DNA of 64,000 bases, taken from the IMG/VR virus record IMGVR_UViG_3300028045_000001, positions 1 to 64,000 of that record. One strand, written 5' to 3'. Shown here piece after piece: positions 8,101 to 63,955 of this stretch. The translations under genes were made by a program, and so were the position numbers. The number at the start of each line of letters is the position of its first letter. Position 1 is the first letter of the stretch. A model generated the notes under the pieces. It saw only the letters and a program-made list of their open reading frames with translations, searched no databases and was not told where the DNA came from. This DNA is from a virus.

Positions 8101-8253
8101 ATGACAATTCATAATGAACTTCCAGCTAAGCTATTTACAGAAGCATTTATAATGCATACTGAAAACACCTTATCGCAATTTAAAGAGATATTGGATGCTC
8201 TAAGTGAACGAATGGATGTTGTGCAGGCAAGCATGGAAAAACCGATCAGATGA
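8101..8253 (+). CDS. hypothetical small protein (50 aa), truncated paralog of 7824..8060
   Basis: Not in the ORF track because it is under 60 aa. Reads [50 protein letters not shown]. Has the same upstream block AAAAAATAAAACTTAGGAGGA. Its stop overlaps the ATG at 8250 (ATGA). Confidence 0.45.
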
Positions 8254-10379
8254 TCTCGGACCTTTCACATAGAATGGAATTAAATGAGGAGTATATGAAA
8301 AATCAAGAAACAGTAGTGATACCAACTTACGATAGCCAAATTTTATTGCAAACTGACATGGATGCATATAAGTTAGGATGCAAATGGGCAGTGTTAATAA
8401 TCAATAGTAGCTGCGAACTAAAGTTTGAAAACGAGATAAACCGTTCCGAAGCAGACGATCTCATATCCAATACAAAAAATATTATGCTACAAATACAAAC
8501 GACAATAGATAGTTTAGGTATACAAAAAACGATTGTACAAGACAACTCACTAATGGATGAACCAGGTATCATACGCGTAGCTCTCATAGATAAAGAAGAA
8601 GGCATCGTGGACGGAGATATCCCATTATGTATAGCGATATGCTCAGATGAAGATTTAATTGAAGCAGCCGGAATGTGGCTCACTATTGTGTATCGGTTAA
8701 AGATAGGGTGTGAGATTGATTACACTAAATCCGAAAAAGAACGACTCCCACATTTTGAATACCTTGCCACAGTACGACCTGCCAATGCGACAGACAAGGA
8801 AGATTCGACAATGCCAAGTACTTATATTCTCATCGCCCATGCTGTTGCGACTGCCCCTCGGAGTGAAGAGGAACTACGTAAGCATAAAGGTTCGTTTATA
8901 ACAAAGTGGCAAGGACAAAAGATTACCTTACCGTTAGATAAATCCGGAACATATGACTTCGAAATCCATTGGGGCGACGGTGCACACGATAAAGTCATAG
9001 GGTACGATCATAGTAGAATCTCACACACATATGCCGATGGCGAGGAGGTGCATACCATAACCATTTATGGGACTGTAGAAGGATTCGGGTTTGATTATTC
9101 ACCGGGGGCAGGCGTAGCGGATATACTCGATGTACTTCAGTGGGGAGATGTCAAGTTACATAACAACGGAGCTCAGTTTGCACATTGTACAAAGTTAAAG
9201 GGATTCAGTGCTAAGGATGTTCCGGATTTATCTGATGTTACCAATATGTGCGGTATGTTCGGTAAGGCTATTTCTTTCAACCAAGATATATCTAAATGGG
9301 ATGTAAGCAGTGTTACTAATATGGAGCAGATGTTCTGTTACGCCATAGTCTTCAATCAAAACATCTCCAATTGGGATGTGAGTAATGTTACTACTATGGC
9401 TGGCATGTTTAGAGGTGCCGCATCATTCAACCAAGATATATCCAAATGGGATGTAAGCGGTGTTACTAATATGAGGGATATGTTCCATGAGGATACTTCT
9501 TTCAATCAAGCCTTATCTAACTGGGATGTTAGTAGTGTTACCAATATGAACCGCATGTTTTATATGGCTACCTGTTTCAATCAGGAGATCTCTAAGTGGG
9601 ATGTTGGAAATGTTACCGATATGGATGGCATGTTCATGTATGCTGTATCCTTCAACCAAGATATCTCCAACTGGGATGTGAGTAGTGTTACTGGTATGGG
9701 TGCGATGTTCCAGCGAGCTTCATCCTTCGATCAAGACATATCCAAATGGGATGTTAGTAATGTTACCGATATGATGGACATGTTCCGTTGCGCCATAGTC
9801 TTTAACCAAGACATATCCAAATGGGATGTTAGTAGCGTAACTGATATGCAGGATATGTTCCATGCAGCTACATCCTTTAACCAGGATATCTCTAAGTGGG
9901 ATGTAAGCAGCGTAACTGATATGGAGGATATGTTCCATTCAGCTCCATACTTCAATCAGGATGTATCTAACTGGGACGTTAGTAGTGTTACTAATATGAA
10001 CGGCATGTTCCATGAAGCTAAGGCTTTCGATCAAGATATCTCCAAATGGAATGTCGGCAGTGTAACTGATATGCACGGGATGTTCCGAGGGGCTCTTTCC
10101 TTCGATCAAGCTATCTCTAACTGGGATGTGAGTAATGTTACCAACATGAGCGGGATGTTCTATAATGCTGTTCGTTTCGACAAATGTATATATAGCTGGG
10201 ATGTAAGCAAGGTCACTAATATGAGGTGTATGTTCTATGGGGCTACCTGTTTCAACCAGGATATTTCTGAGTGGGACGTGAGTAACGTCACTAATGTACA
10301 AAGCATAGTCGGGCTTGCTCCAAGTTTTAAGCGAAATCTCCCCAATTTTAAAGATTGCGCCAATGTGATAGTTAGATAA
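8250..10379 (+). CDS. BspA-like / DUF285 repeat protein with a unique ~200-aa N-terminal domain
   Basis: About 15 tandem 25-residue repeats (FNQDISxWDVSxVTxMxxMF), preceded by the typical TKWxG..ITLPL..G.YDF.I.WGDG module. Alternative start at 8295 (GAGGAG RBS). Confidence 0.8.
9220..10320 (+). repeat. tandem ~75-bp coding repeats (DUF285 units)
   Basis: Periodic AAYCARGAYATHTC...TGGGATGT...GTTAC blocks are visible in the DNA. Boundaries are approximate. Confidence 0.8.
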
Positions 10380-14124: not shown

Positions 14125-14739
14125 ATGAAAAAGAATATCTTAAATGCAATAGTTGTAATTTTTGTAGTATTGAATATGGTTGCTTGCGATAGCTCAGCCG
14201 ATGGAGATCAATCTCGATCTGGATCTTATAACAATCAAGTATCCAGGATCAAAGCTTATGATGAGTTCTTAGAGAGAGCAGGTCACGAAGTCCCAACAGC
14301 TCCTGAAAAATCCACTGCTGATCTTCAAAGAGTTTATAATGAACTTAGAGACAACTTCACTTACATGAGCGATAAGGAACAATACAATGTAGAAGATTAT
14401 TGGACCATCATGTCAGATGACAATCTTGTTGGAGATGCCGAAGACTTTGTGTTGACTCTTCGTAAGAAACTGATGGATGATGGGTTTAGACTGGCTAATG
14501 CACGAATAGCGCGATGCTATGTCCCAAGAGAAGACAATAAGTATGACTCTAAATACGTCAGCATCAACCATACTGTGCTTCTTGTAGAAGTCGAAATGGG
14601 TAGAGTGTATGTTGTAGATTCAGATGCCCATTATGATTTTTATAACTTTCCTGTGGTAGAGTGGGCTGACATGCTTGATGAAACTGGTGACTATTGGGTC
14701 AAGTTGGATATCCCTGGAAACAGCGATCGGATGATGTAA
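14125..14739 (+). CDS. BTLCP-like lipoprotein, paralog 2 (nucleophile Cys replaced by Ala)
   Basis: Lipobox MVAC with Asp at +2. The motif reads VGDAEDFVLTLR (GCC codon at 14437-14439) where its paralogs have GDCEDFA. His (NHTV) and Asp (VVD) are retained. Confidence 0.7.
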   Translation: MKKNILNAIVVIFVVLNMVACDSSADGDQSRSGSYNNQVSRIKAYDEFLERAGHEVPTAPEKSTADLQRVYNELRDNFTYMSDKEQYNVEDYWTIMSDDNLVGDAEDFVLTLRKKLMDDGFRLANARIARCYVPREDNKYDSKYVSINHTVLLVEVEMGRVYVVDSDAHYDFYNFPVVEWADMLDETGDYWVKLDIPGNSDRMM

Positions 14740-14743
14740 TAAC

Positions 14744-14801
14744 TATACAGGTACTGGGCGATATCGCCCAGTACCTGTATACAAATAAACATTATTTTTT
14801 T
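14744..14801 (+). terminator. intrinsic terminator
   Basis: Perfect 38-nt palindrome TATACAGGTACTGGGCGAT/ATCGCCCAGTACCTGTATA, then a T7 tract. Confidence 0.8.
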
Positions 14802-14839
14802 ACCATGTACTGATGTGCCGTCTTTCAATAAACCTTGGT

Positions 14840-14849
14840 TATATATAAC
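14840..14849 (+). promoter_or_regulatory. promoter-like motif variant TATATATAAC
   Basis: Same variant as at 14054 and 15790. Lies 65 nt before the ATG at 14905. Confidence 0.45.
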
Positions 14850-14904
14850 TTATATGAGGAATAAAAAATTATACAATCAATTTAACTACATTGGAGGACG
14901 GACT

Positions 14905-15702
14905 ATGAAAAAGAATATATTAATTGCGATATCTACACTATTCATGATGTTTACTATGGTTGCTTGTGATGGGAGCAGTGGTGGGGGTGGTGCCTCCGGC
15001 GATGACCTATCGGATTCCGGCGAGCTCACCGGAGATCTTGGCACAGACATCATCATAGATCAATATGTTGGGAACACTACTCCGATTATATCCGTTGGTC
15101 AACCAACTGGACGAGTGCGGGCGTATGATGATTTCTTAAGAAGGGATGGGCAGGATGTTCCAGTGGCTCCGAATAAAAATTCGTTTGATCTGAAAAAAGC
15201 GCATAAGGCATTCAGAAAAAAATTCACCTACATGCACGACATAGATAAATACGGTGTAGATGAATATTGGACTATTATGCCTGATGATGATCTTGTTGGG
15301 GATTGCGAAGACTTTGCTCTAACCTTTCGTGAGAAATTAATTGAAGCTGGATTTACTCCACCAAACGTTAGGATAGCAACCTGCGTAATGCCAAATGGAT
15401 ATAGAGATAATAGCCATCAGACTTATCATGCTGTACTCATCGTAGAAGTTTTTTGGGGTGAGGTGTATGTAGTAGATTCCAAGAGATGTTTGAAGTTCGA
15501 TAGCTTTAAAGTAATAGAGTGGGATAAAGTACTTGATGAAACTGGCAACTATTGGGTCAAGATGCGCATACCTAAGGATAAAGGAAATGGCGATCCAGGT
15601 AATGATAATAAAATTGAAGAAGAGGAAACCGAGAAGGAGGACATGGAAGACGACGAACGAAAAGATGGTCCAATAGGCTATTATGATAGACACTATGCAT
15701 AA
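14905..15702 (+). CDS. BTLCP-like cysteine protease lipoprotein, paralog 3
   Basis: GGAGG RBS. Lipobox MVAC with Asp at +2. A Gly/Asp-rich linker is followed by VGDCEDFALTFR, YHAV and VVD, then an acidic C-terminal tail. The tracked start at 14815 lies in the promoter cassette. Confidence 0.7.
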   Translation: MKKNILIAISTLFMMFTMVACDGSSGGGGASGDDLSDSGELTGDLGTDIIIDQYVGNTTPIISVGQPTGRVRAYDDFLRRDGQDVPVAPNKNSFDLKKAHKAFRKKFTYMHDIDKYGVDEYWTIMPDDDLVGDCEDFALTFREKLIEAGFTPPNVRIATCVMPNGYRDNSHQTYHAVLIVEVFWGEVYVVDSKRCLKFDSFKVIEWDKVLDETGNYWVKMRIPKDKGNGDPGNDNKIEEEETEKEDMEDDERKDGPIGYYDRHYA

Positions 15703-15709
15703 TTCAATC

Positions 15710-15766
15710 CTTACATGTTGTTGACCACACTTGGTCAACAACATGTAAGAATCATTTATTTTTTTT
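15710..15766 (+). terminator. intrinsic terminator
   Basis: 18-bp perfect stem CTTACATGTTGTTGACCA/TGGTCAACAACATGTAAG with a 4-nt loop, then a T8 tract. Confidence 0.8.
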
Positions 15767-15789
15767 AATGTCTTTCAATGTTTATTGGT

Positions 15790-15799
15790 TATATATAAC
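15790..15799 (+). promoter_or_regulatory. promoter-like motif variant TATATATAAC in the conserved 45-nt block
   Basis: Nearly identical to the block at 14030-14075. Lies 63 nt before the ATG at 15853. Confidence 0.5.
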
Positions 15800-15852
15800 T
15801 TGACTGAAAGAAGTAAAATATAAAACTAATTTAACTATATTGGAGGATGACA

Positions 15853-16470
15853 ATGAAAACAAATTTTATCAATACAATGATAATAATTACTGTAATGTTC
15901 GCTACAGCTGCATGTAAAGAAGATGCATCTATTAGTGATTATATGAATAGCGACGCCACCACAGCAGTTGAATCCATGGGTCGACCAACAAGAAGGGTTA
16001 GGGCTTATGATGACTTCTTAAAAAGAACTGGTAAGAAAGTTAATGCCATTCCAAAAAAGAACTCATTCGATCTTATACGAGTATACGACGAGCTCAGAGA
16101 TAATTTTACTTATATGCGCGACATGGAACAATACGGTGTGGAAGAATACTGGACTGTTATGTCGGACGATGATCCTGTTGGGGATTGTGAAGACTTTGCT
16201 CTAACTCTTCGTGCACGATTGATAGCCGATGGGTTCTCTCCAGTGAATGTCAGGATTGCAACTTGTTACGTACCAACCTCGTATACTAAATCCGATGATC
16301 CAGAAAAGCGACTGAATCATGCAGTTCTTATAGTTGAAATTAATAATGGCCAAGTGTATGTAGTTGATAATGGAGACCACTATAAGTTTCATGAATTTGA
16401 GGTAATTAACTGGGACCGCATGCTTGATGAGACTGGAAATTATTGGGTCAATATGAACGTGTCCAGCTAA
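15853..16470 (+). CDS. BTLCP-like cysteine protease lipoprotein, paralog 4
   Basis: GGAGGA lies 5 nt upstream. Lipobox TAAC (+2 Lys). Has VGDCEDFALTLR, NHAV and VVD. Confidence 0.7.
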   Translation: MKTNFINTMIIITVMFATAACKEDASISDYMNSDATTAVESMGRPTRRVRAYDDFLKRTGKKVNAIPKKNSFDLIRVYDELRDNFTYMRDMEQYGVEEYWTVMSDDDPVGDCEDFALTLRARLIADGFSPVNVRIATCYVPTSYTKSDDPEKRLNHAVLIVEINNGQVYVVDNGDHYKFHEFEVINWDRMLDETGNYWVNMNVSS

Positions 16471-16483
16471 AGATTAGACCTAA

Positions 16484-16526
16484 TGTAGGGTGGGCAATAT
16501 GCCCACCCTGTAGTGTATTTTTTTAT
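16484..16526 (+). terminator. intrinsic terminator
   Basis: AGGGTGGGC/GCCCACCCT stem extended by G-U pairs, with a 5-nt loop, then a T7 tract. Confidence 0.7.
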
Positions 16527-16554
16527 ATTTCTATAAAACTAATTGGAGGATGTT

Positions 16555-17157
16555 ATGAAAGGGATCTTTATAAACGTGACCCTAATTGGCCTACTGCTAC
16601 TTGGACTCGCTTGCGAAGAAACAGAAGTTACCCATTCAAAAATAGGTAAGCATAATAGATGGAGGCATGCCGGGTACGATGACTTTCTTAAGACACGTGG
16701 GCAAAAAATTTTCGATAACCCAAAGAAGTTCCTTGTCGATTTTCGAAAGATATACGACGAGCTTAGAGATAATTTCACGTATATGGGTGACGAAGAACAG
16801 TATGGCAAAGAAGACTATTGGACCATTATGCCTGACGACAATCTGGTTGGGGATGATGAGGATTTTGTGCTAACCCTCAGAGAAAGATTAGTTAGTAGTG
16901 GTTTTAATAAAGCTAACGTAAGGATTGCCAGATGTTATAAACCGAGGGAGGATAATAAATATGATTCGGAGTACCTTATGTTCAATCATGTTGTGGCCCT
17001 TGTTGAAATTGAAATGGGAAGGTTGCTTGTAGCAGATACAGATGACTACTACAACTTCTATCGTTTTCCAGTAGTCAGTTGGTACGACATGCTTGATGAG
17101 ACTGGCGACTATTGGGTCAAGTTGGATATGCCAGGAAATTCGGACAAAATGGAATAA
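16555..17157 (+). CDS. BTLCP-like lipoprotein, paralog 5 (nucleophile Cys replaced by Asp)
   Basis: GGAGGA RBS. Lipobox GLAC (+2 Glu). The motif reads VGDDEDFVLTLR (GAT at 16855-16857). Shares the REDNKYDS insert and the ...DETGDYWVKLD.PGNSD tail with paralog 2. Confidence 0.7.
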   Translation: MKGIFINVTLIGLLLLGLACEETEVTHSKIGKHNRWRHAGYDDFLKTRGQKIFDNPKKFLVDFRKIYDELRDNFTYMGDEEQYGKEDYWTIMPDDNLVGDDEDFVLTLRERLVSSGFNKANVRIARCYKPREDNKYDSEYLMFNHVVALVEIEMGRLLVADTDDYYNFYRFPVVSWYDMLDETGDYWVKLDMPGNSDKME

Positions 17158-17159
17158 CT

Positions 17160-17187
17160 ACAACGCCTGGACATGTCCAGGCGTTGT
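17160..17187 (+). terminator. hairpin between paralogs 5 and 6
   Basis: 28-nt palindrome ACAACGCCTGGACATGTCCAGGCGTTGT. No clear T tract, so it may be only a partial terminator or a processing site. Confidence 0.5.
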
Positions 17188-17219
17188 GTAACTTATTTAA
17201 ATACATTGGAGGACATGTC

Positions 17220-17861
17220 ATGAAAAATAAAATTATCAGTATGATGTTAATGGGTGCAATTGTCCTTAATGTAGTTGCATGTGTAGAAGTGACAACTACC
17301 ACAACTACTACAGCTACTGGCGAACCTATTGTAATGGGCGACTACGATATCTCAGGTAATGAAACCCCACTCGAATACATTGATCGACCTTCAAGGAGAG
17401 TTCGATTTTATGATGATTTTTTGAGAAGGACTAATAAGAAAGTTCCCTTAAGTCCTAAAAAGAATGTTGGTGATCTTAAAAAAATATATAAGAAACTTAG
17501 GTCTACTTTTACCTATGTGTCTGACATAAATCAATATGGTGTGGATGATCATTGGGTAGTTATGCCGGACAATAATCGCACAGGGGACTGTGAGGATTTT
17601 GCTTTGACTCTTCGTGAAAAGTTAATTGCAGATGGGTTTGAAAAATCCAACGTGAGATTCGCCACGTGTTACACTCCTAAAAAATATGAGGAAGATGCAA
17701 AGAACAATTACCATGCGGTCCTTATTGTTGAGTTATTTTGGGGAAAAGTGTATGTTGTGGATTATAAGTATTGTGTAGAGTTTCGTAAATTCCCTGTTGA
17801 GAAATGGGATCATGTATTAGATGAGACGGGGAAGTATTGGATCCGGATGGAGATTCGTTAA
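17220..17861 (+). CDS. BTLCP-like cysteine protease lipoprotein, paralog 6
   Basis: GGAGGA RBS. Lipobox VVAC (+2 Val). A Thr-rich linker is followed by TGDCEDFALTLR, YHAV and VVD. Confidence 0.7.
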   Translation: MKNKIISMMLMGAIVLNVVACVEVTTTTTTTATGEPIVMGDYDISGNETPLEYIDRPSRRVRFYDDFLRRTNKKVPLSPKKNVGDLKKIYKKLRSTFTYVSDINQYGVDDHWVVMPDNNRTGDCEDFALTLREKLIADGFEKSNVRFATCYTPKKYEEDAKNNYHAVLIVELFWGKVYVVDYKYCVEFRKFPVEKWDHVLDETGKYWIRMEIR

Positions 17862-20180: not shown

Positions 20181-21470
20181 ATGAAAACAGACACTACCGC
20201 GTTCGTAACAAAGTGGGAAGGGAAACGAGTCACGTTACCATTACACAAAAATGGAACATTTGATTTTGTAGTAGACTGGGGCGACGGTGTAGCAGATCAT
20301 ATAACTGAACATGATCAAAAAGAAATTATACACGATTATGAGGATGGCCAGTTAACGCATGAAGTAGCTATATCTGGCACCATAGAAGGGTTTGGATTTA
20401 TTGTCGATGACCCACTTAGTTACACTGCCATAAATTCGCTCCCCTTTGGATCTTTTCCATTAAATAACACCGACGGCTTTGCGCAGCAGTCCAGGACCAT
20501 TGCATTAGTAAAGAAATTCACGAACTGGTGTATGGGGTTTGTCACATCCAAGCAAGCCATAGTGTCAGGACCAAAGGAAGGAAGCCAATTTATGGACTTT
20601 ATTAAGTCAGCCCAAGCTATGGCCCCAAAACCGAGCGACTGCATATTACTCGATGTCTTACAGTGGGGGGCCGTTAAGTTACACAATGGAGGGTGTCAAT
20701 TTACAGATTGTACAAAGTTAAAAGGCTTCAGTGCTAAGGATGTTCCAGATTTATCTAATGTTACTAATATGATGGGCATGTTCCTCAGAGCTACATCGTT
20801 CAATCAAGACTTATCTAAATGGGATGTGGGTAGTGTTACTGATATGAAAGATATGTTCTGTGGCGCTACTTCCTTTAACCAAAATATCTCTAAATGGGAT
20901 GTGAGTAGTGTTACTGATATGAGCGGTGCGTTCCTCAGGGCTGCATCTTTCAACCAAGACATATCTAATTGGGACGTTAGCAGTGTCACTAATATGAAAG
21001 ATATGTTCTTGGGTGCCGAAGTCTTCGATCAAGACATATCTAACTGGGATGTTGGCAAGGTTACTGATATGGCGAATATGTTTAATGGCGCTACATTATT
21101 CAATCAACCCATCTCTAACTGGAATGTTAACAGCGTCACCGATACAGCTGGGATGTTCTATGAAGCTTCATCCTTTAACCAAGACATATCCAATTGGGAC
21201 GTGGGTAGGGTAACTGACATGAGGTTTATGTTCCACAATGCCACTGCCTTCAATCAAGATATTTCTAAGTGGAATGTTGGCAGTGTTAGGAATATGGATT
21301 GTATGTTCATGTCGGCTGTATCCTTCAACCAAGATATCTCTAACTGGGATGTGAGTAGCGTAACTGCTATGGGAGGTATGTTCTATGAAGCCAGCTCATT
21401 CGATCAGAATATATCCGATTGGGATGTAATCAACACGACCAAAGGAAGTCCCATTAAACAAACAAATTAA
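20181..21470 (+). CDS. BspA-like / DUF285 repeat protein, copy 2
   Basis: The N-terminal MKTDTTAFVTKWEGKRVTLPL...VDWGDG is nearly identical to the ORF at 62864. About 9 repeats of 25 residues. No signal peptide. Confidence 0.8.
   Translation: MKTDTTAFVTKWEGKRVTLPLHKNGTFDFVVDWGDGVADHITEHDQKEIIHDYEDGQLTHEVAISGTIEGFGFIVDDPLSYTAINSLPFGSFPLNNTDGFAQQSRTIALVKKFTNWCMGFVTSKQAIVSGPKEGSQFMDFIKSAQAMAPKPSDCILLDVLQWGAVKLHNGGCQFTDCTKLKGFSAKDVPDLSNVTNMMGMFLRATSFNQDLSKWDVGSVTDMKDMFCGATSFNQNISKWDVSSVTDMSGAFLRAASFNQDISNWDVSSVTNMKDMFLGAEVFDQDISNWDVGKVTDMANMFNGATLFNQPISNWNVNSVTDTAGMFYEASSFNQDISNWDVGRVTDMRFMFHNATAFNQDISKWNVGSVRNMDCMFMSAVSFNQDISNWDVSSVTAMGGMFYEASSFDQNISDWDVINTTKGSPIKQTN
20750..21430 (+). repeat. 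tandem ~75-bp coding repeats (DUF285 units)
   Basis: Same periodic unit as at 9220-10320. Boundaries are approximate. Confidence 0.75.
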
Positions 21471-22095: not shown

Positions 22096-22629
22096 ATGGC
22101 TTACGGGGACATATTAAGAGTGCGCTCAAGATTCATGGTGACCAGCGAAGAAGCCCCAGAAAAGGCATCCCTTTGCCTGTTAGATGACAGGGGGCAGCTA
22201 TGGTTCGAACGTCACAATAAACATGGCAGATACTTTAGAAAAAGAATTATGGAACTATGGGATCTTCTTAGATATCTCTTTCGTGACAAAAATCTACGAA
22301 GAATACATTCGATGTACATGCTAATAAATGGGGACAATAGTAGAAAGGCGTCAGTCTGTGCATTGGATAGATCGGGAACTCTGTGGATAGAGTACTATAC
22401 TGACCATGGGAGGTTCTTTAAAAAAAGTGACTCGCTTATCTATTATATGGGGTGCAGTCAAATACAATATTATGGACTCAACAAAAGAGAACCGTGTAGA
22501 CGTAATCCTTGTATAGAAAGAGATGCACAGCATTGTGCTGGATGGATAACTGGCACAGTGGTTGATGTCAGTAAGCCATTTAGATTGCCTGCAACTTCAA
22601 AAAAATATGAGCATCAAATAGGCGACTGA
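22096..22629 (+). CDS. hypothetical protein with an internal duplication
   Basis: AGGAG RBS. ASLCLLDDRGQLWFERHNKHGRYFRK is repeated as ASVCALDRSGTLWIEYYTDHGRFFKK. Confidence 0.6.
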   Translation: MAYGDILRVRSRFMVTSEEAPEKASLCLLDDRGQLWFERHNKHGRYFRKRIMELWDLLRYLFRDKNLRRIHSMYMLINGDNSRKASVCALDRSGTLWIEYYTDHGRFFKKSDSLIYYMGCSQIQYYGLNKREPCRRNPCIERDAQHCAGWITGTVVDVSKPFRLPATSKKYEHQIGD

Positions 22630-22639
22630 TGTAATAAAA

Positions 22640-23008
22640 GAAAAGATATCTGTTGGGACACTTTGTTTGGAGGAGAGTACCCAACGAACGAGTCTGGTCT
22701 TGGTGTAACAATGTAGTTGTACTTGAAGTACAAACCCTTAAGTCGGTACACAATTGTTGACGGATTTCTAGTTTAGGGGCATCTACCATGCTGCGCTCGC
22801 AGCCGGTATGATGCATGCTCTACAACAGAAACATTACAATAAACTTGAGAGTGACTGATAGCGGAGGTTACTTATCAACGTGCGACAATTGCTGCACTGA
22901 GGCCAGTTAAACAGTATCGCTGAGAAGTGTGACGACATCAATGCATGAATACTATATGTCCATGGGGGGCGCATGCAGTATCTTAATTGTGACGATGTAA
23001 TAAAACTG
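22640..23008 (+). ncRNA. candidate structured RNA / small inserted element (GC-richer, ORF-free)
   Basis: No credible ORF on either strand. The ends are complementary (AAGATATCTG at 22643-22652, CAGTATCTT at 22976-22984). Several internal hairpins. Flanked by a 12-nt direct repeat and followed by a strong terminator. The strand is assumed from that terminator. Confidence 0.3.
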
Positions 23009-23050
23009 CACATACATATCTATGGGCGACTGCCCATAGATATGTATGTG
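23009..23050 (+). terminator. intrinsic terminator
   Basis: 19-bp perfect stem CACATACATATCTATGGGC/GCCCATAGATATGTATGTG with a 4-nt loop. Confidence 0.7.
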
Positions 23051-51972: not shown

Positions 51973-51982
51973 CTGATGGGTA

Positions 51983-52050
51983 GTGACGGGGATAGTATGG
52001 GCTATGATAAGCCCATACTATCCCCGTCACTCAGAGATTATTTTTTTTTA
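51983..52050 (+). terminator. intrinsic terminator
   Basis: 20-bp perfect stem GTGACGGGGATAGTATGGGC/GCCCATACTATCCCCGTCAC with an 8-nt loop, then a T9 tract. Confidence 0.85.
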
Positions 52051-55236: not shown

Positions 55237-55277
55237 ATAACACCCACAGTGACTATTATAGTCACTGTGGGTGTTAT
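55237..55277. terminator. bidirectional terminator between convergent genes
   Basis: 17-bp stem ATAACACCCACAGTGAC/GTCACTGTGGGTGTTAT with a 7-nt loop. Confidence 0.75.
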
Positions 55278-55281
55278 AGCC

Positions 55282-55581
55282 CTAAGTAAACCGTATAAGA
55301 TTCTTCACCGATCTTTTTTTTACTGCAACTATACCATCGTCGGTCTTGTAATGTACCCATGAAAATGTGACATTGTGAACAGATGCGTTGGTTACAACGT
55401 GTCCGTTAGGAAAAACTATTTTTTTATATTTTTTTTGGTCACTGAATCTATAGTGCGAATTGAATACGTCACATATGCCGATATATACATTTGCAAAGAT
55501 GTCCAATACAATAGGAATAAGAAATGTTGTAACGATTGCAGTCATACTAAGAATTGTTATAATGTTGATGTGTTCACTCAT
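55282..55581 (-). CDS. small protein with an N-terminal TM segment
   Basis: Preferred over the antisense ORF 55375..55737, which is low-complexity. Weak RBS. Confidence 0.45.
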   Translation of the reverse strand: MSEHINIITILSMTAIVTTFLIPIVLDIFANVYIGICDVFNSHYRFSDQKKYKKIVFPNGHVVTNASVHNVTFSWVHYKTDDGIVAVKKRSVKNLIRFT

Positions 55582-55657
55582 GTTATCAACCCCATAATTA
55601 AATTAATGTTATATAACCACCCATTTAAATTATGTTACTACGAAAAGGTAATTGGAA

Positions 55658-55691
55658 AAGTACTCTCGGCCGTAATTGGCCGAGAGTACTT
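55658..55691 (-). terminator. minus-strand intrinsic terminator
   Basis: 14-bp stem AAGTACTCTCGGCC/GGCCGAGAGTACTT. Read on the minus strand it is followed by TTTTCCAATTACCTTTT. Confidence 0.65.
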
Positions 55692-55780
55692 TCGCATAAT
55701 ACACGCACTAACCAATCAAAAGGAATCTATGACATAAAATGAATGTGGCATGCACCCATTGGATATCTTTCGTTATAATT

Positions 55781-56010
55781 GCAGGGCCTGTCCAACATAG
55801 CCAACACCTGGAGTAGTATATGCTCCGGCTGTAGCGCCGGCAGGTTCGCACTACAACAACTGAGTACCCCTCTCAGCCATACGGGACCCTCATGATGGGT
55901 TGCATCGAGCGGGTCCGTTCAGGTGGATGTGGCTGCATCATGACATATTAGAGGTACATGGTTGTGCTCGTCATGGGTGTGTGGCGGTCAGTTGGACACC
56001 AGGCCCTGCA
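55781..56010. ncRNA. candidate ~230-nt structured RNA closed by a long terminal helix
   Basis: GCAGGGCCTG-TCCAAC (55781-55796) pairs with GTTGGA(CAC)CAGGCCCTGC (55991-56009), giving 17 Watson-Crick bp with one 3-nt bulge. Internal pairings are TCATGATG/CATCATGA, GGACCC/GGGTCC and CCGGC/GCCGG. The segment is GC-richer than its flanks and has no ORF. The strand is undetermined. Confidence 0.35.
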
Positions 56011-56063
56011 AATCGTAAAAGACATTAATATTTATTCACTACATATAATAGTTAAACAATGTG

Positions 56064-56087
56064 TATATATATATATATATATATATA
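56064..56087. repeat. (TA)12 dinucleotide microsatellite
   Basis: Twelve uninterrupted TA units, flanked by the 11-nt direct repeat CTACATATAAT at 56039-56049 and 56096-56106. Confidence 0.95.
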
Positions 56088-56125
56088 TGTTACTTCTACA
56101 TATAATTTTACACTGCCTATATTTT

Positions 56126-56590
56126 TTATAGGCACCTATTATACGCTGCTGTACATAAACTATCTACTACTATGTTGCCTCGATTGCTGGCATGTCCTTG
56201 TACCCACACCATACGTAGACTGTGTGGGGCGATAACGTCTAAGAACATCGTCCAAAGATCTATATTCTTAGCGAGCCTTCCAGAGGAAGTCACCCACCCA
56301 TTACCCGACCAATTATATACCCAGCCCTTATTATAACTATCCACAACATACCTACTATCACTGTACACTGTAACCCTACAAGGAACAGTCAGGGCCCGTA
56401 TAGCATTTATAACCCCGCTAAGTTCCATACGATTGCTGGTAGTGTCCTCGACGGCTTCGCACATAATCATGTACCTATTGTCATCGCTTATAAGCAAGGC
56501 AGCGTTAGTGCCGTACTCTTTACTACCCCCACCATCGGTATATATGCTGACATCTTGTGTTTTGTCCATACGAATCAATTTCCTATACAT
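56126..56590 (-). CDS. rnhA: ribonuclease HI
   Basis: The D-E-D-D catalytic set sits in canonical context: IYTDGG, TSNRMELSGVINAL-like, VYSDSRYV, GHASNRGNIVVDSL. Alternative start at the Met 7 codons downstream (56569). Confidence 0.85.
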   Translation of the reverse strand: MYRKLIRMDKTQDVSIYTDGGGSKEYGTNAALLISDDNRYMIMCEAVEDTTSNRMELSGVINAIRALTVPCRVTVYSDSRYVVDSYNKGWVYNWSGNGWVTSSGRLAKNIDLWTMFLDVIAPHSLRMVWVQGHASNRGNIVVDSLCTAAYNRCL

Positions 56591-57256: not shown

Positions 57257-57493
57257 ATTTTTCAAAAATTATTTGAGAATTGTGTCTCCCTGCGGTCTGC
57301 CAGGGTGTAGATAATTTTCTTTATCTGAGCATTATTACACTGTATAGTAAAACTCTCTTCGAGAGTTAGACATGTTTATACGATCATACTTTTATATAAA
57401 AAAATATGCACGATAGGCACGTTAATTCTTACGGGTCAGCAGCGAGCTGGTCGGGCCTAACCGATGCGGGTGTGCGTATCAGTTTTTTTCACT

Positions 57494-57503
57494 TATATAT
57501 TAC
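57494..57503 (+). promoter_or_regulatory. early-promoter-like motif TATATATTAC
   Basis: Exact motif after CAGTTTTTTTCAC. Unusually, it lies 264 nt upstream of the next ATG (57758). Confidence 0.5.
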
Positions 57504-57504
57504 T

Positions 57505-57715
57505 ATAATAAGAACGGAAATGGTGCTGTTCTTTTTTTCACCATAGGGGGGAGTAACGCCGACGTGTTACTGCACGAATGCGCGCTCCTGAATCGAGTGC
57601 GAATCAACTAACCCACAAGTTGCTGAGTATAGCTCGTAGGCCCGGTCCACTATAACGTAAATGTGGATCGGGTCGATTCAGCGGTGCTGCGGGGGAGTAT
57701 TGTTTTTTTTTTCGT
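57505..57715 (+). ncRNA. candidate early-promoter-driven structured RNA / long leader ending in T10
   Basis: Nested helices CTGAATCGA (57588-57596)/TCGATTCAG (57673-57681) and CCCGGTCCAC (57641-57650)/GTGGATCGGG (57663-57672). The second contains a G-U pair that is only valid on the plus strand. A T10 run lies at 57703-57712. No ORF. Confidence 0.4.
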
Positions 57716-57757
57716 GTCCCTGGCCGCACAAGTTAACAATTCTTATAGGAGAGCGAG

Positions 57758-58855
57758 ATGATTGGATTAGAGGATACATCACTGATAGATGTGGAGAGGG
57801 AACTAGAGAACTTACGGAATGCTTCGACTACGGTCAGTGACTTAACTCATACTGATGCTAACGAGGGTAGCCCGACTGGTGAGTCAGAGGATGTGGGCAT
57901 TCACGATGAGAGGAGTACTGGGGCTGTGCTGCTTGACGCCTACGCTGTGCTGCAGGAGTACTTGGAGTCGACTGGCATCGTTATCGCTATTCCACGTGAA
58001 ACTCTGTACAGTAACTTTATGACGCTCCGGGTGATACTGTGGCTTAGGAGGGTGTTCGATCGTGAGTTTCTGTTAGGGATCTTGCGATCGAACTCGGAAG
58101 TTCGGGAACTCTTAGAGTCGAGCATCATTGCCAGTGAGGACGAGGAGGTGGACGATGTGGAGGATGAGACAGACAGTGGGGAAGCTTACTCAGATCTTAT
58201 CTCAACTCTTATAGGGACACTCTACGATAACTACCCACTAAACTCAGACTTAAAGCAACTTATGGCACATGCCGATGAGATCGTCAACACTCCAGATTTT
58301 TTAGCTTATGTAGCGCATCTGTTAGAGGTTATAGTGGGAGAAGCTACTGCACCAGTTATCAACGACAGCAACATGGAGGAGTTTACCGAATACTTATCCG
58401 GGTTCAGTTCTAACCTTGACAGGCTGGGCGAGTTTATGGATAGCTACAGTAAGGAGTTTAAACGTAGGGACTGGAACATGGTACTTGGTCTGCTCCGTAA
58501 CTACCACCATGAAAAATACAACGGACCGCAGGCTGTTGCATTTATGTTCACATACAACAACGACGTAAATAAGTTCTATCATCCGCGAGCTCTTTTTCCT
58601 GCTGAGGAGGAGCACCGGCAGCATAGCAAGCACCACATAGAGTATTGGTTGAATAGTCCGGATAAAGAAATTCCAGAGCATGTCTTCGTTATGCTTGTGT
58701 TCGCCATAATGGACGATGTCCAGTTCGATCAAAGACTTGCTGCGGAAACCTTCAGTGGCATTGCAAGCAAGTATACTTTTCATGACGGATACATCGATGT
58801 GGCTTGGACCATACTTAACTACGAGTACACCAATCATATGGGGGACGCATCATAA
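57758..58855 (+). CDS. hypothetical acidic protein (365 aa), translationally coupled to the RNAP beta-prime-like gene
   Basis: AGGAGAG RBS. TAATG stop/start overlap with the next ORF. Confidence 0.6.
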   Translation: MIGLEDTSLIDVERELENLRNASTTVSDLTHTDANEGSPTGESEDVGIHDERSTGAVLLDAYAVLQEYLESTGIVIAIPRETLYSNFMTLRVILWLRRVFDREFLLGILRSNSEVRELLESSIIASEDEEVDDVEDETDSGEAYSDLISTLIGTLYDNYPLNSDLKQLMAHADEIVNTPDFLAYVAHLLEVIVGEATAPVINDSNMEEFTEYLSGFSSNLDRLGEFMDSYSKEFKRRDWNMVLGLLRNYHHEKYNGPQAVAFMFTYNNDVNKFYHPRALFPAEEEHRQHSKHHIEYWLNSPDKEIPEHVFVMLVFAIMDDVQFDQRLAAETFSGIASKYTFHDGYIDVAWTILNYEYTNHMGDAS

Positions 58856-60078
58856 TGTTAACTAAGGAGCAGACCAACTATCTAATTAAAAATATCGAAC
58901 GGATGCCACTCAGAAGGTTTTTAATAGACACCTTTACCCCAAGAATACCGGGAGTAGATGATGATGTTTTTAAGATACCGCTGAGAGAAGAATTCATACT
59001 AACTAACGATATGATAATAAACTACAACGGCCCTCCTGTAAAAACAACGGTTCCTATCTTTATAGTAAATGTTATTATATTGGCTGTGCCTCTCAGATCC
59101 AGGGTTGATTATATCAATATGCCCTTCACGAACGCTGTCATAGATAAGATGCAGGACCGCATCATAGACCTTCTTATAGAAAGCTCTAATAATCCTGACA
59201 TAGATCCAGAGTTAAAGATGGACGTTAAAATGTTTTATCATCACTACGATAGCTTAGCGTATATAGGGCATTTTTCAGAGTTAGCTACGTCTGCATATAG
59301 TAAAAAATCTTTAACTACATCTCCTGCTGTGATAGCCAGAGCAAAAGAACTGTATGAGAAACATAAGCATGAGTTAGATGATCCGCGAGTTGTTGTGGCC
59401 ATAGAAGATGAATTGATATCTATGGATAAAGATTGGTTAAAGGGGGATGTAGGATCGGTGTTCTTTGAGTCACTGGGTGCCAAGGGGTACGATATCCATA
59501 GGAAATCATTATTTATAACACAGGGAGCCATACTTAAGTTTGACAAGCAAGGAACGGAGACCTCTGTAGTAAAGCCCCCACTTCATGACGGCTGGGATAA
59601 AAAGGATTTTGTATCTATAGTCAATAATATTAGAAGAGGGTCGTATGGTCGAGCTAACTCGACACAGCAAGGTGGGTATCTGACCAAGATCATGTATCGA
59701 GTATACTCTTCTGTGAAAATAAATATAGAAGATTGTGGTACTAAGAAGGGGATCAAGTTAGTACTGACAGAGCCAGATAAATACATTGGGAGGTTCATAA
59801 CTAAGAATGGAAAAACGATACCATTGACAAGCGATAATGTGGGATCATACGTAGGTAAGGAAATAACAGTAAGGGATCCATTTTATTGTGAGGCCGACCC
59901 TGGGTTCTGTTTTCATTGCATGACTGACGTGGCAAAGGCGATAGGTGCAGATGTCATAGTGAGTCAAGTGAGTGGGATCGGCTCCACTATATTACAAACA
60001 TCTATGAAGGCCATGCATGGGGTCAAACAAAAAGTTTTAACGATCGACTACAAGGATTACTTTATCGATATAGAGTAG
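58855..60078 (+). CDS. multisubunit RNA polymerase beta-prime-like fragment (bridge-helix region)
   Basis: IRRGSYGRANSTQQGGYLTKIMYRV followed by NIEDCGTKKGI aligns with the bacterial beta-prime [26 protein letters not shown] ... EDCGT..G. No NADFDGD motif, so this is only part of beta-prime. Confidence 0.65.
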   Translation: MLTKEQTNYLIKNIERMPLRRFLIDTFTPRIPGVDDDVFKIPLREEFILTNDMIINYNGPPVKTTVPIFIVNVIILAVPLRSRVDYINMPFTNAVIDKMQDRIIDLLIESSNNPDIDPELKMDVKMFYHHYDSLAYIGHFSELATSAYSKKSLTTSPAVIARAKELYEKHKHELDDPRVVVAIEDELISMDKDWLKGDVGSVFFESLGAKGYDIHRKSLFITQGAILKFDKQGTETSVVKPPLHDGWDKKDFVSIVNNIRRGSYGRANSTQQGGYLTKIMYRVYSSVKINIEDCGTKKGIKLVLTEPDKYIGRFITKNGKTIPLTSDNVGSYVGKEITVRDPFYCEADPGFCFHCMTDVAKAIGADVIVSQVSGIGSTILQTSMKAMHGVKQKVLTIDYKDYFIDIE

Positions 60079-62863: not shown

Positions 62864-63955
62864 ATGAAAACAGACACTAACGCGTTCATAACAAAGTGGG
62901 AAGGCGAACAGATCGAACTGCCGTTAGATCCAGATGGAACATATGACTTCACAGTAGATTGGGGAGATGGTACATCGAACCGCATAACCGAGCATGATCA
63001 AAAAGAAATTATACATGGTTATGAGGATGGCCAGGTAGCGCATGAAGTAGTTATATCGGGAGTTATAGAAGGGTTTGGGTATAGGGGTCTCCATATGCAC
63101 GATTACGAGTTAACTAAAGGCATATTACTCGATGTCCTACAGTGGGGAGATGTTAAGTTACATAATAGAGGGAGTCAGTTTGACCATTGCACAGAACTAA
63201 AAGGCTTCAGCGCTAAGGATGTTCCAGATTTATCTAATGTCACTAATATGGGTGGGATGTTCTATGGAGCTTCATCATTCAACCAAGACATCTCTAACTG
63301 GGACGTAAGTAATGTAACTGATATGATAGGCATGTTCGGTTACGCCACATCATTCAATCAAGACATCTCTAACTGGGATGTGAGTAGCGTAACTGACATG
63401 GGTGCGATGTTCTCTGACACTTTACGCTTCAACCAAGATATCTCCGATTGGGATGTTAGTAACGTTATTGGCATGCACAGTATGTTCCATAACGCTACCT
63501 CCTTCAACCAAAATTTATCTAATTGGGATGTGAGTAATGTGGGTGATATGGGATTTATGTTCTATGGAGCTACATCCTTCGATCAGGACATATCTAACTG
63601 GGATGTGAGTAAGGTTACTTATATGGGATTTATGTTCCATGGAGCTACCTCGTTCAACCAAGATATCTCTAAGTGGAATGTTGGCAATGTCACTAATGTA
63701 GACTGCATGTTTCTCAAAGCTTCATCCTTCAACCAATCCATCTCTAACTGGGATGTGAGTAATGTTACTAGTATGTCGGGTATGTTCGCTAAAGCTTCAT
63801 CCTTCAACCAAGATATCTCCAACTGGGATGTTGGAAATGTTACTAATATGGAGGGCATGTTCGGTGAGGCTTCATCCTTCAACCAAGACATCTCTAAATG
63901 GAACATCAGTGATGCTGCTGCTGACACATGTAATATATATGGCGATAAATCATAA
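62864..63955 (+). CDS. BspA-like / DUF285 repeat protein, copy 3
   Basis: GGAGGGAGG RBS. MKTDTNAFITKWEGEQIELPL...VDWGDG, plus about 9 repeats of 25 residues. Confidence 0.8.
   Translation: MKTDTNAFITKWEGEQIELPLDPDGTYDFTVDWGDGTSNRITEHDQKEIIHGYEDGQVAHEVVISGVIEGFGYRGLHMHDYELTKGILLDVLQWGDVKLHNRGSQFDHCTELKGFSAKDVPDLSNVTNMGGMFYGASSFNQDISNWDVSNVTDMIGMFGYATSFNQDISNWDVSSVTDMGAMFSDTLRFNQDISDWDVSNVIGMHSMFHNATSFNQNLSNWDVSNVGDMGFMFYGATSFDQDISNWDVSKVTYMGFMFHGATSFNQDISKWNVGNVTNVDCMFLKASSFNQSISNWDVSNVTSMSGMFAKASSFNQDISNWDVGNVTNMEGMFGEASSFNQDISKWNISDAAADTCNIYGDKS
63230..63915 (+). repeat. tandem ~75-bp coding repeats (DUF285 units)
   Basis: Same periodic unit as in the other two copies. Boundaries are approximate. 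Confidence 0.75.

Follow-up and report, generated by a model that had tools for sequence, protein, structure and literature searches.

A single-copy GC-rich element with inverted-repeat ends in the rnhA 3′ UTR of an uncultured phiKZ-like jumbo phage, possibly a MITE-like or foreign insert

Co-transcribed MITEs are known from bacteria, with the Neisseria Correia elements, ERIC and RUP as examples. Long stems in phage transcripts are familiar from the R sites of phage T7 and the sib site of phage lambda, simple hairpins of ~50-70 nt that serve RNase III processing or retroregulation, while the attC sites of integrons (~57-150 bp) carry 7-mers of the consensus RYYYAAC / GTTRRRY. MITEs also occur in phage genomes, where they are rare, accounting for 0.01% of viral sequences; in bacteria, their median length is 104 bp, and they are largely genus-specific (PMC11602168). 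Here, we analysed a 233-bp element situated downstream of rnhA in a 64-kb stretch of the genome of an uncultured phage (64,000 nt, hereafter the window), and compared it with these systems.

The element resembles co-transcribed bacterial MITEs and the MITEs of viruses (PMC11602168) in being small, non-coding and intergenic, in having terminal inverted repeats of ~30 bp, and in its capacity to form a long stem if transcribed. Unlike them, it is single-copy, belongs to no family, has no matching insertion sequence and shows a doubtful 3-bp duplication; moreover, it is longer than a typical MITE (233 bp compared to the bacterial median of 104 bp), and it is GC-rich rather than matched to the genome that carries it. 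Among the known systems, bacterial MITEs read through by neighbouring genes are nonetheless those that it would work most like. With the T7 R sites and lambda sib it shares a long, bulged stem (27 bp, predicted) downstream of a gene within a transcript, but this stem encloses 168 nt of GC-rich sequence. As in 6S RNA, Y RNA, RNase P RNA, SRP RNA and tmRNA, a GC-rich stretch stands out from an AT-rich genome and has its 5′ and 3′ ends joined by a helix; unlike these RNAs, the element matches no covariance model, and its interior is not significantly structured. The similarity to attC lies in the inner 7-mers GTCCAAC and GTTGGAC, which fit the consensus and lead into an unpaired 3×5 loop and then a helix bearing a single extrahelical G. 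We rejected an attC site on account of 12 more paired bp outside the would-be R box, the length of 233 bp and the wrong orientation of the second box; no integrase was found among the neighbouring proteins scanned. Overall, the element is a real feature of ordinary appearance, and its origin is uncertain.

The phage to which the window belongs is an uncultured, deeply divergent jumbo phage of the phiKZ-like (chimallivirus-type) kind. Among the proteins encoded in the window are a GroEL-like chaperonin, a family B DNA polymerase of divergent sequence (PF20286; 48716-50917) and, at 58855-60078, a beta-type subunit of a multisubunit RNA polymerase. The closest cultured phages belong to the Pseudomonas phiKZ group and show ~32% protein identity, and a search of 5.8 billion proteins with the RNA polymerase beta subunit returned no relative above 37% identity. 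The phage was recovered as contigs in five samples (ERZ27250555, ERZ27250540, SRR8436476, SRR8436474 and JGI 3300027996), the longest recorded contig being 240 kb. At ~4.5-6.5 kb, the called genes measure 256, 364 and 91 aa in the ERZ27250555 contig versus 270, 370 and 101 aa in the SRR8436476 contig, so at least two strains exist, and the element is identical in both.

The ends of the element constitute an imperfect terminal inverted repeat of ~30-35 bp with small indels (Table 1). A repeat search delimits its outermost part, a perfect 12-nt inverted repeat; in the predicted fold, the helix continues past a 3-nt bulge with 6 bp (TCCAAC/GTTGGA) and, beyond a 3×5 internal loop, with a third segment of 9 bp that includes one bulged G. 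All 27 bp of this closing stem (12+6+9) are Watson-Crick, with zero G-U pairs, and the pair probability is ~1.0 on both strands, also when the whole 479-nt 3′ UTR is folded. The initial annotation had counted 11+6 bp around the bulge and considered the helix extendable inward, which agrees with what we measured. Its description of a discrete unit, enriched in GC, devoid of ORFs and closed by a long helix, is likewise borne out by composition, repeat and reading frames, and the unit does lie inside a transcription unit, with the rnhA stop on one side and a terminator of the minus strand on the other. Each arm contains CCAAC twice, ~10 nt apart. Within the window, the arm motifs are found in the element only, and for this reason we rejected a repeated operator.

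Table 1. Features of the element, of the surrounding rnhA locus and of the window, with positions counted from the first nucleotide of the window.
Feature	Position	Strand	Description
Element	55779-56011		233 bp, 56% GC, no ORF, inverted-repeat ends
Element in TG...CA register	55780-56010		
Left arm of terminal inverted repeat	55779-55808		TTGCAGGGCCTG / TCCAAC / ATA / GCCAACACC
Right arm of terminal inverted repeat	55976-56011		GGTGT(G)TGGC / GGTCA / GTTGGA / CAC / CAGGCCCTGCAA
Outer helix segment	55779-55790 / 56000-56011		perfect 12-nt inverted repeat
Second helix segment	55791-55796 / 55991-55996		TCCAAC/GTTGGA, predicted fold
Third helix segment	55800-55808 / 55976-55985		GCCAACACC/GGTGT(G)TGGC, 9 bp, one bulged G
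Interior	about 55809-55976		168 nt as folded, local GC-rich hairpins only
AAT left of TG end	55777-55779		read directly in the sequence
AAT right of CA end	56011-56013		possible partner of 55777-55779, read directly
Predicted empty-site junction			CTTTCGTTATAATCGTAAAAGACATT
Element end sequence			TGCAGGGCCTG...TCCAAC
rnhA (RNase HI)	56126-56590	-	Pfam RNase_H, 1e-29
TA run	56064-56088		25 nt, between rnhA stop and element
Intrinsic-terminator-like hairpin	55657-55692	-	15-bp perfect stem (arms 55657-55671 / 55678-55692), 6-nt loop, UUUU; T-run on minus strand
Stop -> terminator hairpin pairs compared	15702->15707, 51972->51982, 20084->20095, 55191->55237		
T-rich motif	4665, 10444, 12418, 21550, 52070, 54203, 57493, 62135	+	tttttttatTTATATATTAC, ending TTATATATTAC

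In a window of 39% GC overall, the element has 56.2%, the highest value of any 233-nt window in the 64 kb, and its flanks have 35.6% and 17.5%; with 70 G and 61 C, it shows no strong GC skew. The GC maximum falls at 55777, the repeat starting 2 bases further on, and island edges and repeat ends agree to within 2 nt. At -42.0 kcal/mol, the arm duplex is the strongest pairing of segments 100-400 nt apart in the window, compared to -41.1 kcal/mol for the best pairing among 30 dinucleotide shuffles of the whole window and -40.2 kcal/mol for a pair from a coding region of the real sequence. In addition, perfect inverted repeats of 12 nt or more with a spacing of 100-400 nt occur at five other places in the window. 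Judged at window scale, the helix by itself is only borderline; the coincidence of the repeat ends with the edges of the GC island is clearly non-random. Because the sole outstanding GC island of the window has ends complementary over 27 bp, we consider it a real, discrete module. Moreover, all six copies of the element, which come from six independent contigs in five samples, are identical, and the lack of any difference within it indicates that it is not an assembly artefact.

These figures bear on one possible origin, namely that the element is an inert piece of foreign DNA of higher GC content, such as host DNA, captured by illegitimate recombination, with an end complementarity that is fortuitous or left over from the capture and with neither mobility nor function. 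The genomes of phiKZ-type phages can be far more AT-rich than those of their hosts, so captured host DNA would appear as a GC island. That the element is a single-copy orphan in every collection searched, and that the energy of its helix is barely beyond that of the best chance duplex at window scale, is also what such a fragment would lead one to expect. We nevertheless hold this origin to be unlikely, as the repeat sits exactly at both island edges, 12 perfect and 15 more pairs at the two ends of such an island are very unlikely to arise by chance, and the element contains no detectable remnant of a protein-coding gene. Indeed, stops occur in all six frames, Pfam returned nothing below its cut-offs, and in the search of the concatenated translations against 5.8 billion proteins, none of the 478 candidates reached E ≤ 1. 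The degraded coding remnant that the initial annotation had named as an alternative has thus left no trace in the six-frame translation, in Pfam or in the 5.8-billion-protein search.

The reading that we tentatively prefer, while rating it somewhat below an even chance, is that of a solitary MITE-like or foreign insert with TG...CA ends and AAT/AAT flanks, co-transcribed in the rnhA 3′ UTR. In its favour are the sharp compositional edges, the symmetric repeat, an interior no more structured than expected by chance and the lack of coding signal. The element has terminal inverted repeats (12 perfect + 6 + 9 bp) and is small and non-coding (233 bp, stops in six frames, no protein match), as expected of a MITE; multiple related copies, also expected, were found neither in 84 kb of the genome nor in IMG/VR, among the listed GTDB matches, in the JGI metagenomes or in phage and plasmid records. 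The AAT triplets on either side form a candidate 3-bp target-site duplication in the TG...CA register only, in an AT-rich context and with a rough chance expectation of ~0.1; being 3 bp long, located in AT-rich DNA and dependent on one register of several, they are weak evidence. TG...CA ends combined with a 3-bp duplication are, we presume, similar to the ends of IS3- or IS21-type elements.

The searches for relatives were extensive, and each pattern match was checked for similarity beyond its seed. BLASTN against the genome, proposed in the initial annotation as a way to find further copies, detected no second copy in 84 kb of genome, made up of the 64-kb window and a further 20 kb beside it. 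In IMG/VR, the exact 17-mer and the paired-end patterns gave chance matches in GC-rich coding DNA only, and three interior 17-18-mers gave chance seeds only. The end pattern has at least 120 matches in GTDB genomes; among the matches listed, none extends meaningfully past the seed, the longest being 32 nt at 91% identity in two archaeal MAGs. Two patterns searched in JGI metagenomes returned 0 matches and 2 chance matches, respectively, and since the exact element pattern is unmatched there, this collection evidently lacks the phage's own contig. Using the whole element and each arm as blastn queries, we found no match in phage and plasmid records. Exact-protein look-ups of the neighbouring genes led to the same phage only, always with the identical element. 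Thus, the searches turned up neither a second copy nor a parent insertion sequence sharing these ends nor an empty site, all six of the six contigs (five samples) being occupied, and this speaks against mobility. Should the element indeed be a MITE-like or foreign insert without further copies, its interest would be that of a minor curiosity, a rare piece of mobile or host-derived DNA in a lytic jumbo phage. Since MITEs are largely genus-specific, the element could, once a matching copy is known, link the phage to its host.

The surroundings of the element fit an insertion into a 3′ UTR. The rnhA stop is 434 nt away from the terminator hairpin, with no ORF longer than 57 aa and with stops in all six frames in between, whereas the distance from stop to terminator hairpin elsewhere in the window is 5-46 nt. 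Gene callers place the rnhA start at 56569, yielding a protein of 147 aa. The nearest rnhA homologues are cellular and share at most 47% identity; downstream of them, no similar element was found, and other genes directly adjoin. Together with a 99-aa gene (55282-55581), rnhA forms a small minus-strand island among plus-strand operons, in a moron-like layout, and a sigma-70-like TTAACT-16-TATAAT lies upstream of it at 56798-56771. As no terminator separates rnhA from the element, the two should be co-transcribed, and the terminator-like hairpin likely represents the 3′ end of the element-carrying rnhA transcript.

Assuming a MITE-like or foreign insert, foreign-looking non-coding DNA with inverted-repeat ends would have arrived by insertion and settled in the dispensable space that separates the rnhA stop from the terminator. 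It would then be read along with rnhA on the minus strand, and its arms would pair in the RNA as a 27-bp bulged stem. As modelled, this stem would supply the near-continuous double-stranded RNA of at least ~20 bp that RNase III requires in a transcript. Any effect of the element is probably that of a long double-stranded stem in the 3′ UTR, either as an RNase III processing target or as a stability element, as is the case for bacterial MITEs that are co-transcribed, and it is probably not that of a multi-helix RNA machine.

As to promoters, the T-rich motif tttttttatTTATATATTAC recurs eight times in the window, on the plus strand only and each time upstream of plus-strand genes. AT-rich early promoters have been described for jumbo phages (PMC11512511), and the motif, which resembles them, likely is an early promoter of this phiKZ-like phage. 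It is absent near the element, and a sigma-70 scan detected no site upstream of the element on either strand. The sequence TTATATGTAG beside the TA run is not enriched elsewhere and is no recurrent signal. One occurrence of the motif lies in a 500-nt gap that has no ORF (57257-57757), where the promoter-like stretch (57493-57503) is directly followed by a hairpin and T-run (57510-57533), with another terminator-like site at 57463-57480. Such an arrangement could yield a very short RNA or function in attenuation.

Considering that the initial annotation had proposed a novel structured RNA, the folding of the element merits particular attention. Folding energies for the entire element are -104.8 kcal/mol (z -4.2) on the plus strand and -97.1 kcal/mol (z -4.6) on the minus strand, and on either strand none of 200 shuffles is as stable. 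Once the arms are removed, the interior reaches a z of only -0.66 on the plus strand, where 44 of 200 shuffles are at least as stable, and of -1.66 on the minus strand (10 of 200); the excess stability therefore lies wholly in the terminal repeat. A strong z-score for a whole element can thus stem entirely from its terminal inverted repeat, and folding the interior alone is a cheap control. The inner long-range pairings, regarded as structure in the initial annotation, are at chance level by the interior z and by the frequency of a perfect 8-nt complement, which arises in 17% of interiors after shuffling; complements of 6 and 7 nt show no enrichment. The TCATGATG pairing is present, but at 55890-55897 instead of 55889-55896. 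Neither the plus- nor the minus-strand fold contains GNRA or UNCG tetraloops.

The strands were compared as well. Since the closing stem is Watson-Crick only, it is identical on both strands and carries no RNA strand signal; a stem of this kind has the look of a DNA-level terminal inverted repeat. The plus-strand fold is better by 7.7 kcal/mol and has 6 G-U pairs versus 2 on the minus strand. The better-folding strand is thus the plus strand, whereas the gene and the terminator are able to deliver a transcript on the minus strand. What a functional structured RNA should display, namely a stability excess throughout the molecule together with a strand preference, was not found in these folds.

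Accordingly, only part of the structured-RNA proposal stands: there is a discrete, paired-end, non-coding unit in a transcript, but interior structure, strand signal and family link are not borne out. A genuine lineage-specific structured non-coding RNA of ~230 nt, whose stem joins its ends and which is made either from the minus-strand rnhA 3′ UTR or as a plus-strand antisense RNA, is in our view rather unlikely. It would account for a GC-rich island with paired ends in an AT-rich genome, for the whole-element z-scores and for the G-U content and greater stability of the plus-strand fold, and the position between gene and terminator makes transcription very likely. It is at odds with an interior no more stable than shuffles, folds devoid of GNRA/UNCG tetraloops, a 27-bp stem with zero G-U pairs, a better-folding strand that is not the strand of gene and terminator, and the failure to detect a promoter of the element's own. 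In addition, no family matched even at E ≤ 10, and no homologues that could provide evidence of covariation turned up in the collections searched. The positive support for a structured RNA is limited to the closing stem. A functional RNA would represent a new class of RNA from phages, in a lineage that has no cultured relatives; at present, there is little positive support for it.

With respect to known families, an Rfam 15 scan of the whole window at gathering thresholds, covering among others 6S, SRP, RNase P, tmRNA, group I/II introns, self-cleaving ribozymes, HEARO/omega RNA and ROOL/GOLLD, returned 0 matches. When the threshold was relaxed to E ≤ 10 for 55500-56200, nothing appeared beyond miRNA-type noise and hits to the terminator hairpin and the TA run, and ARAGORN found 0 tRNA or tmRNA genes in the window. 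The lack of a match to known RNA families, judged by eye in the initial annotation, was thereby confirmed. A Csr/Rsm-type GGA sponge, an IS200/605 PATE or omega RNA, and an R-loop origin were rejected on geometry or composition.

A second ORF-free stretch is found on the plus strand at 22640-23005, between the stop of the gene at 22096-22629 and a perfect 19-bp hairpin (23009-23050). Its folding is strand-specific, the plus strand reaching -111.6 kcal/mol (z -3.5), compared with a z of -0.9 for the minus strand, and it has neither an Rfam match nor similarity to the element. The initial annotation had taken short words common to the two as a possible sign of a family; blastn (word size 7, E up to 50) gave no alignment between them, so the shared 7-8-mers are due to chance. 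This stretch is a better candidate for a 3′-UTR structured RNA in the window than the element. For the RNA reading of the element, it counts as support in that it has the same gene-to-terminator layout and a strand-specific fold, and the phage may thus carry 3′-UTR RNAs. The more far-reaching proposal, according to which the element is a new ~230-nt RNA that plays a part in infection, is either processed out of the rnhA 3′ UTR or transcribed independently, and constitutes with the 22.6-kb stretch a set of 3′-UTR-embedded RNAs of this lineage, appears very doubtful.

Finally, the element may be considered as a cis-acting DNA site for replication origin, recombination or packaging, in which the repeat would be extruded as a cruciform or bound by a dimeric protein, with the TA run as an easily melted region. 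The symmetric Watson-Crick repeat with its duplicated CCAAC in each arm, the 25-nt TA run 52 nt from the element, and the unusually large share of non-coding DNA between 54.2 and 57.8 kb, a region that also contains gene-orientation switches, would all suit such a site. We judge it highly improbable, given that the window holds no arm motif outside the element, that iterons and a strong GC skew were not observed, and that such a site has no evident use for a GC-rich spacer of 168 bp separating the arms; this phage group offers no known origins for matching. The TA run is the sole site of the locus that is polymorphic among the contigs, its length varying by 2-6 nt. Two Logan assemblies break at this run, and on either side of it stands one copy of a 10-nt direct repeat without mismatches, CTACATATAA (56039-56048 and 56096-56105).

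Several further observations concern the window at large. Perfect or near-perfect palindromes with arms of 19-22 nt directly follow stop codons at 51982-52031, 55237-55277, 15707-15752 and 23009-23050, and apparently serve as the terminators of this phage; that at 55237-55277 lies between convergent genes. Repeats of 75 nt (25 aa) of the DUF285/BspA type are present in three proteins (8250-10379, 20181-21470 and 62864-63955), and 14125-17861 encodes a tandem array of five paralogues whose signal peptides are lipoprotein-like.
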